Shown here in pieces: positions 1-7,996 of a stretch of DNA of 9,864 bases. Below the pieces are notes generated by a model. That model had not been told where the DNA came from. It searched no databases and saw nothing but the letters and a program-made list of their open reading frames with translations. The translations under genes and the position numbers were made by a program. This DNA comes from a virus (Duplodnaviria > Heunggongvirae > Uroviricota > Caudoviricetes), in the IMG/VR virus record IMGVR_UViG_2695420817_000017; one strand, given 5' to 3'. Position 1 is the first letter of the stretch; the number at the start of each line of letters is the position of its first letter.

Positions 1-381
1 TTACCGCCGCAGTCGTTCCGGCTTCTTCCACTGGTAAGTACTTTTCGCGCTCTCCCTCCGTTGTTGAGAACGGCGACGGTATGCCAGCAACTCAAGGACT
101 CTGGTTCGTATGTTGCGCATATCCACGCCGTTAAGCTCAATACCATCACGGCGCATCACCTCAGCAACAACACGCGCGTAATTTTCGGCTATCACGCTGT
201 CCGGCTGCGTGGCCTCCTGTTCGCCAGCCTGCTGGCTGATTCCGGTAATACTGCGGATTATCCCGAGCGCTTCGGTCTCGGTCATGGTCATGGTCATGGC
301 CTCCATAGTGATGGCGGGTCCTCCTTGTGGGGTGCCCTGCCACGGGGCGGGAGCATCGCGGAAAAAGGCTAGTTTTTGCAT
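1..381 (-). CDS. Hypothetical protein (maximal ORF 126 aa; start uncertain)
   Basis: Minus-strand ORF, ATG at 381..379, stop TAA at 3..1. No Shine-Dalgarno before the first ATG. Internal ATGs at 306 (AGGAGGA 12 nt upstream) and 291 (GGAGG 8 nt upstream) are better supported, giving 101 or 96 aa. Contains the in-frame (GGTCAT)x3 repeat encoding TMTMTM. No family recognised by eye. Confidence 0.45.
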   Translation of the reverse strand: MQKLAFFRDAPAPWQGTPQGGPAITMEAMTMTMTETEALGIIRSITGISQQAGEQEATQPDSVIAENYARVVAEVMRRDGIELNGVDMRNIRTRVLELLAYRRRSQQRRESAKSTYQWKKPERLRR

Positions 382-542: not shown

Positions 543-1085
543 TTACTTGTCTTTATCCGGCTGAAACTTATCAGGCACATTTCCGGTAGTTTCCATCAGA
601 TAATCGGACAGCATTCGCGGGATGTTTTCATCAAGTTTTGTGCATGCGTTACAGGCTCTGACAACTTCTTTTTTCAGGCCATCCAGCATGACGGGGGTCA
701 TCTGTGGGAAGCTCCTTTGCATAGTAAGCGGGAGGCTGTCCATGATTGATGAAATCTGACTCGCCAGTTTTGAAAGCGCGTACATGCAAAACTCTGTATC
801 AATCACGTCACCGCGATCGCGCTCGTTTTTAAGTTCCTGCGCCTCCGCCTGTGCTGTCAGTAATCTGATCCTGACTCGTAAGAGTTCATCATCATCAATC
901 TCGCCTTTGTCGTTTGTAAGCTGGCTAATTGCATTGTTAACCCTATTGTCTATCACGCTGGCAACATCATAAAACGCCTCACGGCCTTTACGTTCAACGG
1001 GAGTCACTCCCCACTTGTCGAATGCTGTAGCACTTACCCGGCAGCTTTGCGCCATGGTTTTTTTGTTCATCAGGTGCGATTTCAT
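543..1085 (-). CDS. Small terminase subunit, lambda Nu1-like (TerS)
   Basis: ATG at 1085..1083 (the track ORF begins 3 nt upstream at TTG), stop TAA 545..543, 180 aa. The C-terminal two thirds (RLLTAQAEAQELKNERDRGDVIDTEFCMYALSKLASQISSIMDSLPLTMQRSFPQ...LDENIPRMLSDYL) match, from memory, lambda Nu1 (RLTRAQADAQELKNARDSAEVVETAFCTFVLSRIAGEIASILDGLPLSVQRRFPE...LDELIPGLLSEYI), which is also about 181 aa. N-terminal ~50 aa are divergent but HTH-like (MNKKTMAQSCRVSATAFDKWGV). Lies ~135 bp downstream of a cosN site, as in lambda. Confidence 0.8.
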   Translation of the reverse strand: MKSHLMNKKTMAQSCRVSATAFDKWGVTPVERKGREAFYDVASVIDNRVNNAISQLTNDKGEIDDDELLRVRIRLLTAQAEAQELKNERDRGDVIDTEFCMYALSKLASQISSIMDSLPLTMQRSFPQMTPVMLDGLKKEVVRACNACTKLDENIPRMLSDYLMETTGNVPDKFQPDKDK

Positions 1086-1089
1086 CAAT

Positions 1090-1260
1090 ATCCCAACTTG
1101 GTCAAGGTTTCAGGTTGGTGTGTTGGTGTTATCTTTCCCTTTTTATTCATGGAGATAGAGCAAACAACAAAACCACCACCACCACCCTGAAAAAGCTCAT
1201 AAATAGCGAAAAACCGCGAGGTCGCCGCCCCGTAACCTGTCGGATCGCCGGAAAGGACCC
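1090..1260 (-). other. lambda-type cos site: cosQ/cosN (about 1197..1260, 12-nt cohesive-end core at 1219..1230) plus divergent cosB-like region (1090..1196)
   Basis: Minus strand reads GGGTCCTTTCCGGCGATCCGACAGGTTACG|GGGCGGCGACCT|CGCGGTTTTTCGCTATTTATGA. From memory the lambda cos junction is ...CCGGTGATCCGACAGGTTACG|GGGCGGCGACCT|CGCGGGTTTTCGCTATTTATGAAAA..., so the 12-nt cohesive end is identical and the flanks nearly so. Similarity stops after TATTTATGA; the segment between cosN and the TerS start carries (ACC)5 and a tandem GTTGGTGT repeat instead of lambda R-sites. Confidence 0.8.
1172..1186. repeat. (ACC)5 trinucleotide tandem repeat inside the cosB-like region
   Basis: accaccaccaccacc read directly at 1172..1186, between cosN and the TerS start. 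A tandem octamer GTTGGTGT GTTGGTGT also lies at 1114..1129. Confidence 0.9.
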
Positions 1261-1286: not shown

Positions 1287-1670
1287 TCAACCAATCAGCT
1301 TATAGCGACCTTCCCGTGCATTGCGGCGTACACGCTCAATCTTGAGGCATAGCGCCGCATCTGGCTTTTTTGGGACAGATACGCGGCAATATTCAGAAGC
1401 GCGAGGGATATTATTTATCCAGTCAATTACTTCACTTAAATACCATGCCTTACGCCCCTCAGTAACCTGAACACGCTCAGGAAACTCACCACGGGCTTCA
1501 AGGTTTAACAAAGTTCGACGGCTAAGGGTGGTCAGTTCCATAACCTGGTTCATATCTACCAGGCGTTCGCTTAAGCGCATTTTGTCAGCAATAGCCTTTA
1601 ATTCCTCTACTGCTGGATCCGGATACATCATTTCGGCAATTGGCTTAAGGTCATTGTAATGATTCTGCAT
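1287..1670 (-). CDS. AlpA/excisionase-like HTH domain protein (127 aa), function unassigned
   Basis: ATG at 1670..1668 preceded by AAGGGGGAT, 4 nt after the decoration-gene stop, so probably co-transcribed. The central segment LTTLSRRTLLNLEARGEFPERVQVTEGRKAWYLSEVIDWI fits the AlpA/Xis (HTH_17/MerR-like) DNA-binding pattern. Ends ~55 bp before cosN. Confidence 0.6.
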   Translation of the reverse strand: MQNHYNDLKPIAEMMYPDPAVEELKAIADKMRLSERLVDMNQVMELTTLSRRTLLNLEARGEFPERVQVTEGRKAWYLSEVIDWINNIPRASEYCRVSVPKKPDAALCLKIERVRRNAREGRYKLIG

Positions 1671-1681
1671 TGTATCCCCCT

Positions 1682-2023
1682 TTACACACGAGCCAGCGGC
1701 TGAACAGAAATACCTGAGCCAACAAACGCGGCAACCTTTGCCGACAGTTCTTTTACAGACTCAGGCCAGTTCAGAGCATCAACATTTAAAACACCTGTCT
1801 TATAAACCTGTGCCTGTGTTTTTTTCGCTGTGTCGATTTGTACAGCGGAAACATAAACCGCTTTGCCTGCGCTCGTTCCATCCCATACCACTAGCGCACC
1901 AGTTGCATCTTCCTGCATCAGTGGCGTAAACGCAGGTATTACCCCTTTATTGGCTGAAAATATCCCCAGCGTAGTAACCAGTGCTTCAGTGCCAGACATG
2001 AGTTCAGTGTAATGAGTAGCCAT
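1682..2023 (-). CDS. Head decoration protein, lambda gpD-like
   Basis: 113 aa, ATG 2023..2021 preceded by AAGGGGGAG. AFTPLMQEDATGALVVWDGTSAGKAV...QVYKTGVLNVDALNWPE...AAFVGSGISV aligns by eye with remembered lambda gpD ([26 protein letters not shown]...TFYKSGTFRYEDVLWPE...TAFAGTAISIV). Directly downstream of the capsid gene. Confidence 0.8.
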   Translation of the reverse strand: MATHYTELMSGTEALVTTLGIFSANKGVIPAFTPLMQEDATGALVVWDGTSAGKAVYVSAVQIDTAKKTQAQVYKTGVLNVDALNWPESVKELSAKVAAFVGSGISVQPLARV

Positions 2024-2032
2024 TGCTCCCCC

Positions 2033-3079
2033 TTAGCCAATGCGAACGGTAACAAAACGATTGATGCGGGCCGGTATTGGCTGTGGTGCAGAGTGCGTTT
2101 GTACGTACTCAATAGCCGGATCACCAGGCACAATATAGTTTTTCGGTGCAAGTTCGGCTTTAGTCAGCCCCATTCGGATTAGCTCCGGATCCTGAATACC
2201 GCCATAGGCGACAATCCCCTGAAGAGCCGTATTGCCAAGCACCATCAAATCAGGATCAAGGAAATGTTTTTCAGTTCCGTCCTCGTCGGTATAACGTCCG
2301 CTGTAAACAACAATCGCAACATCGCCCATATACCCTTTAAAACTCACCGAATCACCAAGGTCTTTAAGGGCCGTTTCCAGTTCGGAATTAGAACCACGAC
2401 GGGTATCCAGAGCCTCTTTTATCGCTCTGAATGAACGGTATTTCTTCCATACATTACCGCCCATAATGATGATATTAGTGACGCCCTCACTAAATTCTGC
2501 GTAGCTCTCAATATCATCATTTGGATCAAAAGTTTCTTTATCCTTACCTGACCACTCAGCACCGCCAGACTGCGTGATAATATTTTGTGGTTTTATATTC
2601 CAGTCCAGTTCATAACGTTCAATACCATCGCCCTCAATGATATTTTTCCCCGTTGTGATTGCCTGAACAGCAAGCCATTCAATACGTGCACGTATAGCTT
2701 TAGCCTGATTTACAATCGCCTGTTTAACTTTAATATTACGCGCCCCAAAAGCATTGTATTGTTCAGGTGATACACCAGCAGGGCGCACAGCTAACTTATT
2801 TGGATCAATGCTGCTTTTCGGTTTCATATAGCCAGGGCGAATTGTTTTTGATTCGTATCCCTCATCTCGTGAAACTTTACTGCCCACCATAGGAGAGCAA
2901 AACGCCGCGATCGGGATATTTGGATCGTCGATCGTATCAAGAATAATGTCTCTCGATTCAAACATTACCGAGCGAGTGAAAAACAAACTGGTAAACAACG
3001 CATTTAATTTTTTTTGCACATCTTCAGCATTAGCCACCTGCACAAGCTGTGTAGGCGAATATAAATCAACCATACTCAT
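2033..3079 (-). CDS. Major capsid protein, lambda gpE family
   Basis: 348 aa from ATG 3079..3077 (MSMVDLY...); the track ORF extends further upstream, but homology favours the MSM start (lambda E begins MSMYTT). Long blocks match remembered lambda gpE, e.g. ITQSGGAEWSGKDKETFDPNDDIESYA...LDTRRGSNSELETALKDLG...GDVAIVVYSG...MVLGNTALQG. An alternative start lies at 3073. Confidence 0.85.
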   Translation of the reverse strand: MSMVDLYSPTQLVQVANAEDVQKKLNALFTSLFFTRSVMFESRDIILDTIDDPNIPIAAFCSPMVGSKVSRDEGYESKTIRPGYMKPKSSIDPNKLAVRPAGVSPEQYNAFGARNIKVKQAIVNQAKAIRARIEWLAVQAITTGKNIIEGDGIERYELDWNIKPQNIITQSGGAEWSGKDKETFDPNDDIESYAEFSEGVTNIIIMGGNVWKKYRSFRAIKEALDTRRGSNSELETALKDLGDSVSFKGYMGDVAIVVYSGRYTDEDGTEKHFLDPDLMVLGNTALQGIVAYGGIQDPELIRMGLTKAELAPKNYIVPGDPAIEYVQTHSAPQPIPARINRFVTVRIG

Positions 3080-3284: not shown

Positions 3285-3358
3285 GCAGAATTTAAAACGG
3301 TATATTATCGCCGTACGGATCATCATTCCCCGACTGTTGTTTTGCCCTGTTCAGTGCG

Positions 3359-3715
3359 TCAGTGGCCTGCCCCTGCTGGCCTTTTTTTGCCGCCCGGTCG
3401 CGCCGTTCGCGCACTGATTACGCTGTCTGCGATAACCTGCCAGCCCTGCCGCGTTTCGCCGTTCTGGCCTGTCCACTGGCTTACCTGCATGTTACCCGCC
3501 ACGCTCACCAGTTCGCCTTTGTGGTGTTTTGCCAGTGCGTCGGCCTGTCTGCCAAACGCCAGGACGGATAACCACATCGTCGCCGTTCCGTCATCTGCCT
3601 GGCTGCACGGAAGGGGGACCGCCATACTAGCCATCGCCATTTGTGTACCCTTGCTGATGGTCTTTAACTGCGGGTCAGCCACCAGCCGTCCGTAAGCCGC
3701 TATCTGTGCTGTCAT
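3359..3715 (-). CDS. SSB-like OB-fold protein lacking the acidic C-terminal tail (118 aa)
   Basis: ATG 3715..3713 with GGAGAG 8 nt upstream; start overlaps the stop of the upstream ORF (ATGA). YGRLVADPQLKTISKGTQMAMASMAV...WLSVLAFGRQADALAKHHKGELVSVAGNMQVSQWTGQNGETRQGWQVIADSV follows the bacterial SSB OB-fold pattern (G-L-DP..., W..V..FG..A...KG..V.V.G...W.D..G..R). C-terminus is basic (PGGKKRPAGAGH) instead of an acidic DDDIPF-type tail. Confidence 0.6.
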   Translation of the reverse strand: MTAQIAAYGRLVADPQLKTISKGTQMAMASMAVPLPCSQADDGTATMWLSVLAFGRQADALAKHHKGELVSVAGNMQVSQWTGQNGETRQGWQVIADSVISARTARPGGKKRPAGAGH

Positions 3716-6758: not shown

Positions 6759-7079
6759 TTATCCCCGATTTGAATCAGTATTCGCTTTCTTTATAGCATT
6801 TAATGCATCTGTGGCATTTTCAATGGTGCACCGTAACGAAATATCAAAATGTCCAAGCATTGCCAGTAACAAACCAATATTACCCATATCAATGCGCATG
6901 GCCTTTTCGTCATAGTCCTCATTTTCTGACGCATGCCACATCAGGCTACCAATTGACGCAACAGCCATTGATATATTGTCAGTAGCCCCATCCGCAGCGG
7001 AATAAACCTTTTTAGCAATATCATGCTCACAGTTAAAATGCGGATTAATCAGGTACTGGTAATTTGACATATCAGGCAT
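6759..7079 (-). CDS. Hypothetical acidic protein (106 aa), AT-rich cassette gene 1
   Basis: ATG 7079..7077 with AGGGGG upstream, overlapping the stop of the upstream small ORF by 8 nt. Net charge about -7. Alternative start at 7070. No family recognised. Confidence 0.55.
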   Translation of the reverse strand: MPDMSNYQYLINPHFNCEHDIAKKVYSAADGATDNISMAVASIGSLMWHASENEDYDEKAMRIDMGNIGLLLAMLGHFDISLRCTIENATDALNAIKKANTDSNRG

Positions 7080-7275
7080 GGCACACCCCCTGACGAATAC
7101 GGGCAGCGAATACCATCACGCAGCCAGCCGGGGATTGCAGGCGTGCTTCCTGTTCGCTGGCGGCCTCAATGGTAATCACGCGCGGTTGTGCCGTGCTCAG
7201 GGCGATAAAACGCCAGATGTATTTATTCAGGTTGTGCGAGTCCCGCCCTTGCGGGTGTGTGGTATGATTTAACAT
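7072..7275 (-). CDS. Small protein (67 aa), possibly host cell division inhibitor Icd-like family
   Basis: Only the last 67 codons of the 304-aa track ORF are credible: ATG 7275..7273 preceded by GAGG; MLNHTTHPQGRDSHNLNKYIWRFIALSTAQPRVITIEAASEQEARLQSPAGCVMVFAARIRQGVCHA. The WRF...FAARI pattern recalls Icd-like proteins of P4-like islands; this is recollection only. First gene of the operon leading to the primase. Confidence 0.5.
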   Translation of the reverse strand: MLNHTTHPQGRDSHNLNKYIWRFIALSTAQPRVITIEAASEQEARLQSPAGCVMVFAARIRQGVCHA

Positions 7276-7372
7276 AGCTACCTCGATACGCTTTCTATCG
7301 TTGGTGGTTAGAAGCCCGGTTAGTGTTAGCGCACTGCCGGGTTTCGTCGTTTCTGCACCTTGCATCAACAAG

Positions 7373-7424
7373 GTGTTGAACACCAATTTAAGCCCTGGTG
7401 TTAAACACGTCAAGTGTTGAACAC
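7373..7424. promoter_or_regulatory. Three operator-like palindromes GTGTTRAACAC in the divergent promoter region
   Basis: GTGTTGAACAC at 7373..7383, GTGTTAAACAC at 7398..7408, GTGTTGAACAC at 7414..7424 (centre spacings 25 and 16 bp). The third overlaps a possible plus-strand -35 (TTGAAC 7419..7424, 17-nt spacer, CATACT 7442..7447) for the RHH gene. Confidence 0.6.
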
Positions 7425-7474
7425 TTATTTTTTTTCCTGCATACTGCATTTGTTTTTTGTAAGGGGTACACAAC

Positions 7475-7654
7475 ATGGCGACAAAAGCAGTAAACGCAAA
7501 ATCACAAACAGTTGCGGCAAGGGTTCCGCATGAAGTTATGAACAATGTTGAGGCGGTAAAAATGCCTGGTGAAAGTACAGGGCAGTTTGTAACAGCAGCA
7601 TTAAAGCGAGAAGTTGAATACCGCCAGCGTCGCAAGGCCAAAGAGCAGGAATAA
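7475..7654 (+). CDS. Ribbon-helix-helix (CopG/Arc-like) small DNA-binding protein, 59 aa
   Basis: Absent from the ORF track (under 60 aa). ATG 7475 with AAGGGG 8 nt upstream, stop TAA 7652..7654. MATKAVNAKSQTVAARVPHEVMNNVEAVKMPGESTGQFVTAALKREVEYRQRRKAKEQE fits strand-helix-loop-helix. Divergent from the replication operon. Confidence 0.6.
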   Translation: MATKAVNAKSQTVAARVPHEVMNNVEAVKMPGESTGQFVTAALKREVEYRQRRKAKEQE

Positions 7655-7711
7655 CCATCACCAGCGCCGTGGTGTAAGGTATTACGGCGCATTGCTATGC
7701 AGGACAACACA

Positions 7712-7885
7712 ATGACCGATAAAGAATTGACCAAAACATTATCACCGGCACGGAAAAGACGGCGCAGAAAGATAGAGCATGAATCAGAAAGATTCGCGCC
7801 ATGTGCTTTTGCCCTTGAGCAATTCCTTAAAGAGTACAGGGAAACGCGCCCATTGCAGGTATGGCAACGAACTGAACCAGACTGA
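7712..7885 (+). CDS. Hypothetical small basic protein (57 aa)
   Basis: Second ATG of the track ORF, chosen because AGGA lies 7 nt upstream (7701..7704). MTDKELTKTLSPARKRRRRKIEHESERFAPCAFALEQFLKEYRETRPLQVWQRTEPD, with an RKRRRRK basic patch. Followed by a plus-strand terminator. Coding status uncertain. Confidence 0.4.
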   Translation: MTDKELTKTLSPARKRRRRKIEHESERFAPCAFALEQFLKEYRETRPLQVWQRTEPD

Positions 7886-7949
7886 TTGCATTGCCCACCA
7901 GCCTGATAGCGGCTATCATCCCCGTGCTTATGTTTAGTGTTTTCCCATT

Positions 7950-7977
7950 GGCGACCGCCCCCGGTCGCCTTTGTTTT
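7950..7977 (+). terminator. Rho-independent terminator between convergent genes
   Basis: Stem GGCGACCG (7950..7957), loop CCCC, stem CGGTCGCC (7962..7969), then TTTGTTTT. Sits 65 bp after the small plus-strand ORF and 20 bp after the alpA stop. The minus-strand reading lacks a U-tract. Confidence 0.65.
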
Positions 7978-7996
7978 ATGTGTCATATGCTCCCCT

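Follow-up and report, generated by a model that had tools for sequence, protein, structure and literature searches.

The terS gene of an Escherichia coli satellite of the PICI type is a Nu1-family small terminase gene borne without a cognate large terminase (TerL), and its product is modular, the DNA-binding domain and the adjacent cosB site being exchanged as one cassette. The gene probably specifies a functional satellite TerS, which reads a private cosB and recruits a lambda-type TerL to a lambda-type cosN and cosQ. This kind of element and its terS are already published, the mechanism is not: EcCIIHE3034 (NC_017628.1:920272-930825) and EcCI18098 were listed at the cspD-clpS site with att ATGATAGTTAT (Fillol-Salom et al. 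2018, PMC6092414) and stated to "encode TerS" (PMC6092414), in a study that contains no cos, cosB or domain analysis of the TerS-encoding islands and in which inducing the resident prophages did not mobilize these two islands (PMC6092414).

Genomic Context and Identity of terS

The window (the whole stretch of DNA analyzed, 9,864 nucleotides) is found with 100% identity in the chromosome of E. coli AR_0077. The island has a length of 10.7 kb and lies between clpS and yljB/cspD, with ATAACTATCAT att repeats 10.7 kb apart. It is a PICI-type E. coli satellite of the EcCIIHE3034/EcCI18098 family, as it is unidirectional (all genes but one are on the minus strand), about 10 kb long and bounded by att repeats, carries int, alpA, primase/replication genes and a packaging module, and has no lysis or tail genes. 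The gene order is integrase, an AlpA-type regulator, Icd-like fragments, DUF4222, a DUF927 primase, a frameshifted SSB gene, gpE-like capsid, gpD-like decoration, a second AlpA-like gene, an intergenic cos, terS and a 94-aa ORF (Table 1), and by synteny the stretch from capsid through decoration, regulator and cos to terS is a conserved module. EcCIIHE3034 and EcCI18098 share with the island the cspD-clpS att site, a size of 10.5-10.8 kb and the gene order. The TerS of EcCIIHE3034 is identical at 153 of 180 positions (85%), including 50/52 in the DNA-binding domain and 51/52 in the core, and its cosB blocks are the same, whereas its C-tail allele agrees at only 23/39 positions and the capsid, regulator and primase alleles differ.

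Several features of the surrounding genes may be mentioned. The SSB gene (3292-3715, minus strand) is frameshifted in this copy (PGAP pseudogene) and intact in EcCIIHE3034 and other copies. A 304-aa ORF at 7072-7986 (minus strand) is probably spurious; PGAP leaves it unannotated and instead has a YlcI/YnfO gene on the plus strand (7475-7654) and Icd-like fragments in this region. The capsid and decoration genes sit in an island without portal, protease or scaffold, and the islands have two capsid alleles with about 65% nucleotide identity; in EcCICFT073, deleting the homologues of the capsid and decoration genes has been reported to leave transfer and interference unaffected. The place of the second AlpA-family regulator is taken by an unrelated 137-aa ORF in the IHE3034, CFT073 and L005-type islands. 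The 94-aa ORF, for which no Pfam match was found, has a homologue of 93 aa (L009 3374-3655) following rppA in EcCICFT073, and accompanies both kinds of packaging cassette, terS and rppA, as a conserved partner. Beyond this ORF the cargo varies, one E. coli island (L097 21518-22279) carrying a gene for abortive infection and islands with the Enterobacter/Citrobacter-type TerS P0109 (L093-L095 6559-7916) carrying FRG/DUF3892 genes.

The terS ORF is intact, with an ATG at 1085 and a stop codon at 543-545. The ORF listing extends the start to a TTG at 1088; the ATG is supported by a subfamily at 57% identity, which retains the N-terminal M-x-x-H-L-[ML]-N-K-K. The same CDS in E. coli AR_0077 is labeled "terminase small subunit" by PGAP. 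The protein matches Pfam PF07471 (Phage_Nu1) with 81 bits (cut-off 30) over aa 64-148 only, phrog_57 (terminase small subunit) over aa 1-174 (E 6e-52) and lambda Nu1 with 37% identity (BLASTP, E 1e-35; Nu1 query identical to the sequence in NC_001416), and the nearest true phage protein is N15 gp1, with 47.5% identity. The gene lies directly downstream of cosQ-cosN-cosB, its ATG being at cos bp 146. The lack of an adjacent terL marks terS as a satellite gene and does not exclude its product from the Nu1 family. Relatives at 64% and at 57% identity, the latter in Enterobacter and Citrobacter, are likewise found in the satellite module and not in phages, and a widening profile search gave mostly further satellite copies among the matches listed. 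Of 5,426 complete E. coli genomes, 762 carry the terS-cos module and 95 the RppA allele (this allele only, at high similarity).

Table 1. Features of terS, the cos site and the neighboring genes (coordinates refer to the window).
Feature	Position	Strand	Basis
94-aa ORF, always after terS	1..285	-	phrog_1561, synteny in 80 loci, comparison with CFT073 homologue
terS, 180-aa Nu1-family small terminase	543..1085	-	ORF, PGAP CDS, PF07471, phrog_57, BLASTP to Nu1
Satellite-specific C-terminal extension TGNVPDKFQPDKDK, aa 168-180	546..584	-	Alignments; low model confidence
C-terminal tail, aa 129-167, variable module, at the position of the TerL-binding region of Nu1	585..701	-	33-34% identity to Nu1 and N15
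Helical core, aa 77-128, most Nu1-like part	702..857	-	50-56% identity to Nu1; Pfam match
Linker and start of long helix, aa 53-76, shorter than in Nu1	858..929	-	Alignment gaps versus Nu1, 12-33% identity
DNA-binding domain, winged helix-turn-helix, assigned to the N15 class, aa 1-52	930..1085	-	
Recognition helix RVSATAFDKWGV, about aa 16-27	within 930..1085	-	
cosB inverted-repeat arm, cos bp 111-123, candidate inverted R2	1108..1120	+	Repeat search, conservation
cosB block 1, GGTGGTGGTTTTGTTGTT, cos bp 51-68, candidate R3	1163..1180	-	At least 90% conserved or invariant in 60 distinct cos sequences
Inverted-repeat partner arm TTTCAGGGTGGTG, cos bp 39-51	1180..1192	-	Repeat search
cos bp 13-36, CTCGCGGTTTTTCGCTATTTATGA, nearly identical to lambda	1195..1218	-	
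cosN cohesive-end 12-mer GGGCGGCGACCT, identical to lambda	1219..1230	-	
cosQ-like GGGTCCT, cos bp -30 to -24	1254..1260	-	Alignment with lambda right end
AlpA-family regulator immediately upstream of cos	1287..1670	-	PF05930, phrog_2790
gpD-like head-decoration gene	1682..2023	-	PF02924, PGAP, synteny
gpE-like major-capsid gene	2033..3073	-	PF03864, PGAP, synteny

Domain Profile of the Island TerS

Similarity to Nu1 is highest in the central core of the protein, and the tail is about as divergent as the N-terminus. In the DNA-binding domain (Nu1 1-55; segments are given in Nu1 numbering, and ranges come from two slightly differing alignments), the island TerS is 39-43% identical to Nu1 over the aligned positions, with 15-16 positions gapped, and 59% identical to N15 gp1, with 1 gapped, the identity between Nu1 and N15 gp1 being 36%. 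The corresponding values (island-Nu1, island-N15 gp1 and Nu1-N15 gp1) are 33, 44, and 40% in segment 56-100, 50-56, 52, and 78% in the core (101-140), and 33-34, 33-34, and 80% in the tail (141-181), to which the island protein adds a 13-aa extension that both Nu1 and N15 gp1 lack. The first-pass annotation had proposed a modular small terminase, without TerL, whose similarity to Nu1 is concentrated in the C-terminal two thirds. Modularity and the lack of TerL are borne out (see below), but the proposed profile is not, since the only peak is the central core and the Pfam match is confined to aa 64-148. Similarity to Nu1 in fact comes close to being uniformly low, the outcome that the annotation itself had named as refuting its claim, with the tail at about the level of the N-terminus and only the core still standing out.

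The N-terminal domain, described in the same annotation as divergent, indeed gives no detectable match to the DNA-binding domain of Nu1 in phmmer. However, it is not novel and, judged from its sequence, belongs to the N15 class: with N15 gp1 it shares length and gaps, the recognition helix reads SATAFDKWGV in the island and SVQAFDKWGV in N15 (8/10 positions alike), and Nu1 positions 20 and 24 are taken by D and V, as they are in N15. The pairwise alignment and structure prediction suggested at the outset identify a homologue of Nu1 with a predicted winged helix, which superposes on lambda-family TerS domains in a model of moderate confidence (pLDDT 69, pTM 0.30) built on a shallow alignment of 27 sequences.

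The core occupies the position of the self-association region of Nu1, and the breakpoint of natural chimeras, AQAEAQELKN, falls at its start. It is known that the C-terminus of TerS binds TerL (gpA in the case of Nu1) and that lambda/21 chimeric TerS proteins are functional (PMC9026076). A motif near the C-terminus, LDExIPxxLSxY, is common to Nu1, N15 gp1 and, among the island alleles, this one only; the other tail alleles retain still less of it. Overall, the island protein and lambda Nu1 agree in family, length (180 versus 181 aa), domain order, cosN and the position of the gene just downstream of cos, and differ in that the island has no gene for a gpA partner, an unrelated cosB, indels in the DNA-binding domain, and a divergent tail with the extension. 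As for N15 gp1, the tail of the phage protein is lambda-like, unlike that of the island, and N15 terL adjoins terS.

A Lambda-Type cosN Next to a Private cosB

The island is near-identical to lambda over about 30 nt to the left of cosN, including GGGTCCT, and over 24 nt on the other side, beyond which its sequence is unrelated to lambda R3/R2/R1. The GGGTCCT element matches lambda in both sequence and distance, is conserved over 60 cos variants and is called cosQ-like here for standing at the position of lambda cosQ. PICI cos sites are reported to retain cosQ (PMC9026076). The right half of cosN (the equivalent of window positions 1219-1224) varies among related islands (L010-L089 cos regions).

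The first cosB block sits at the position of N15 R3, whose critical sequence is GAGGTTGTTGTT at bp 48-59 (PMC4669245), and overlaps it with related G/T triplets (about bp 48-68) in a different sequence. The island reads GGTGGTGGTGGT at bp 48-59, which agrees with the N15 R3 at 7/12 positions, and the critical GTTGTT, which in N15 occupies bp 54-59, is found in the island at bp 63-68, that is, 9 bp further out, with GGTGGT at bp 54-59. As far as these sequences can tell, the specificity of the island is probably related to the N15/Monarch class and yet distinct from it. The (GGT)n tract in cosB (1169-1186, minus strand) has lost 3 nt or varies in its G-run in some of the copies (L053, L056), which suggests slippage.

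The second block, ACACCAACCTGAA (minus strand, cos bp 110-122), is invariant over the 60 distinct cos sequences. It corresponds to one arm of an inverted repeat (1108-1120 and 1180-1192) of 13 nt, 92% complementary, with 59 nt between the arms; the left arm, at cos bp 39-51, varies among islands. The motif TTCAGGKTGGTG has 2 matches in the window, both in cosB, against 0.01 expected. N15 has one R3 together with a remote rR2 that lies within gene 1 (PMC4669245), unlike the island with its inverted pair in cosB, and no N15-style internal copy of the cosB block was found inside terS at up to 4 mismatches. A search for the IHF consensus WATCAANNNNTTR between the cosB blocks at up to 2 mismatches was negative.

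Exchange of the DNA-Binding Domain Together With cosB

A chimeric terS of 194 aa (P0099) is present in islands adjoining phoQ, in three independent assemblies (L090-L092); the protein cluster is recorded in more than 100 contigs. The DNA-binding domain and linker of P0099 show 96-100% nucleotide identity to the phage-21-like terS of CFT073 prophage 4, and the sequence from AQ(A/E)AQELKN to 80 nt beyond the stop codon shows 98.7-100% nucleotide identity to the window. Instead of the GGT/GTT cosB, P0099 carries a 21-type cosB with three sites (R3 at bp 53-61, inverted R2 at bp 112-120, and R1 at bp 154-162) that are placed as they are in prophage 4, in a geometry that matches the two cosB blocks of the window, the inverted-repeat arm of which shares its position with the inverted R2 of the 21-type cosB. 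The satellite C-terminal module, i.e., core and tail, is thus retained even where a helper-type set has replaced the DNA-binding domain and cosB. In the Enterobacter/Citrobacter subfamily an N15-like domain goes with GGTGGTGGTGTTGTT at cos bp 51-65, so that the type of domain co-varies with the type of cosB in three subfamilies (the island, Enterobacter/Citrobacter, and the chimera). The chimera and the Enterobacter/Citrobacter subfamily therefore indicate that a change of DNA-binding domain goes along with a change of cosB and is independent of the C-terminal module.

Conservation of terS

The gene is intact and encodes 180 aa in all 81 copies, with an overall dN/dS of 0.15 (32 distinct proteins and 37 distinct genes were available for within-family variation). 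The DNA-binding domain is the most conserved segment, with a mean pairwise identity of 95.8% and a dN/dS of 0.04, and its recognition helix is invariant over the 32 protein variants. Mean pairwise identity and dN/dS are 87% and 0.16 in the linker, 90% and 0.13 in the core, 74.8% (minimum 51%) and 0.19 in the tail, of which six types exist, and 66% and 0.29 in the extension. All parts of the protein, tail included, are therefore under purifying selection. Positive selection as the source of tail variability was rejected, given the dN/dS of 0.19 together with a raised dS (0.73 in the tail versus about 0.40 elsewhere); the diversity of the tail looks like the result of mosaic ancestry, rather than of decay or positive selection.

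Absence of TerL and Candidate Helpers

Neither the island nor the 8 kb flanking it on each side contains a TerL, none is detected by tblastn of gpA against the window, and none follows terS in 80 related loci, where the sole gpA match lies upstream, in a host prophage. These results confirm that no TerL follows terS, as the first-pass annotation had noted; its further claims, that cosB differs from that of lambda in step with the DNA-binding domain and that the protein is modular, are upheld by the joint change of domain and cosB and by P0099, with its 21-type DNA-binding domain and cosB on the C-terminal module of the island.

In about a third of the IMG/VR copies, the island is inserted into a lambda-like prophage, within its portal (B) or capsid (E) gene (L007/L008, L097, and about 26 of L010-L089), a configuration that has been described for a PICI without terS (PMC10111431). 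Strains APEC 102026 and AST216 are among those whose lambda-like prophages host such copies. Two of the host prophages encode Nu1 proteins identical to lambda at 177-179 of 181 positions and gpA proteins identical at 638-639 of 641, and have the cosB of lambda. The lambda-type prophages hosting embedded copies are obvious candidate helpers for the published TerS-type islands. Two expectations regarding this relationship failed. First, the right half of the island cosN does not match that of the embedding prophage, as the L097 island, with GGGCGTCAGGCG, lies in a prophage with GGGCGGCGACCT. Second, the tail type does not track the N-terminus of the helper TerL, which in both hosts is identical to gpA at 60/60 positions, with different tail types in the islands. 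Lambda-type terminases are reported to lack cosN specificity between lambda and N15 (PMC4669245), so the mismatch between island and prophage cosN does not contradict a helper of the lambda type, for which the embedding prophage is no more than a candidate.

Discussion

The proposed mechanism can be outlined as follows. During growth of a lambda-like helper, the island would excise and replicate into concatemers, and its TerS would bind the private cosB via the N15-class winged-helix domain, for which the GGT/GTT block (cos bp 51-68) and the inverted TTCAGGKTGGTG element (bp 110-122) are the candidate sites. The core and the C-terminal module would then recruit the gpA-type large terminase of the helper, which would nick the lambda-type cosN and terminate at the lambda-type cosQ, so that island multimers would fill the helper heads, four copies amounting to about 43 kb. 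As the helper Nu1 would read another cosB, the two packaging channels would be orthogonal, and competition for TerL would come at a cost for the helper. In favor of this reading count the lambda-type cosN and cosQ beside a private cosB, the invariance of the cosB blocks and the recognition helix, the co-variation of domain and cosB, the purifying selection on every segment, and the lambda-like prophages around many copies. Points against it are the failure of EcCIIHE3034 and EcCI18098 to transfer, the low identity of the tail to Nu1, the two failed expectations on cosN and tail type, the moderate confidence of the structure model and the variable left arm of the inverted repeat. Binding at the candidate cosB sites, direct recruitment of TerL and interference with the helper are what we infer, the least secure step being the direct contact with TerL. 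The tail has the length and position expected of a TerL-binding tail and a dN/dS of 0.19, and it is 33-34% identical to Nu1 and N15.

A satellite small terminase that redirects the TerL of a helper, in an element without TerL of its own, is known from SaPIs in the form of TerS(S) (PMC6739421). SaPIs, however, use headful pac packaging and another TerS family, live in Gram-positive hosts and block the helper TerS by means of Ppi.

Among the Gram-negative PICIs, EcCICFT073, at the phoQ site, has the same succession of capsid, decoration, 137-aa ORF, cos, 144-aa ORF and 93-aa ORF, in which the 144-aa ORF has the size and position reported for RppA. The Rpp system resembles the present one in its lambda-type cosQ/cosN, in its private cosB and in its purpose, namely redirecting a lambda-type terminase to the island cos, and differs in the cosB sequence, which reads ACCACCACC at bp 55-63 instead of the GGT/GTT block. 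In islands of other strains at the same att site (L005/L006 versus L009), terS fills the rppA slot. This exact replacement within otherwise syntenic islands speaks for the main rival of the proposed mechanism, according to which the island TerS would work as Rpp does, pairing with the helper Nu1 through the interface of DNA-binding domain and long helix or through the 50-56% identical core, so that Nu1 would connect it to gpA and recognition of the island cosB would fall to the mixed complex. Bridging to TerL by the helper TerS has been proposed for Rpp-TerS complexes (PMC9026076), and the divergence of the tail from Nu1, as well as the failure of tail alleles to track the N-terminus of the helper TerL, would fit such an adaptor. 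Homology between Rpp and the island TerS was nevertheless rejected at the sequence level (RppA, BLASTP E > 1). In addition, Rpps have 139-154 aa, lack the C-terminal 30-40 residues and depend on the helper TerS for the connection to TerL (PMC9026076); the island TerS, by contrast, has 180 aa with a full core and tail, both under purifying selection. A dependence on the helper Nu1 is for these reasons judged unlikely.

The island TerS could also be an interference factor, a decoy or dominant-negative protein that titrates the helper TerL or poisons Nu1 oligomers, with packaging of the island being secondary or reliant on other features. The resemblance of the core to the self-association region of Nu1 points in this direction, as do the typical interference of PICIs with helper packaging (PMC6739421) and the presence of other defense cargo, such as abortive-infection genes, in the islands. 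A decoy, however, would need neither a DNA-binding domain held at a dN/dS of 0.04 beside an equally conserved private cosB nor the joint replacement of the two in the chimeras, and this explanation appears quite improbable as a substitute for packaging; interference as such is compatible with packaging by the island TerS and is not an alternative to it. That terS is a decaying remnant of the packaging region of a defective lambdoid prophage, devoid of present function, is highly improbable and, in spite of the missing TerL and the frameshifted neighboring SSB gene, effectively refuted by the conservation data (81/81 copies intact and of the same length under a dN/dS of 0.15, satellite synteny conserved across genera, the module in 762 complete genomes), int, alpA, the primase and the att repeats also being intact.

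Returning to packaging by the island TerS, a more speculative version of it, which we consider rather doubtful, is that the satellite C-terminal module is a distinct way of capturing lambda-type TerL, co-assembling with or out-competing Nu1 through the 50-56% identical core and thereby poisoning recognition of the helper cosB, as well as driving island packaging. If true, one protein would unite roles that are split in SaPIs between TerS(S) and Ppi and given to Rpp in EcCICFT073, and the many tail alleles would be the outcome of an arms race with the terminases of helpers.

Rpp is the only packaging mechanism that has been worked out for Gram-negative cos-type PICIs, and the terS-cos module is the commoner of the two (762 of the 5,426 genomes, versus 95 for the RppA allele), which makes it a worthwhile experimental target. 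The island supplies a concrete candidate cosB, and the terS-cos module, with an N15-class reader beside a lambda-type cutter site and a DNA-binding domain exchanged along with cosB, is a natural system for the study of TerS specificity.
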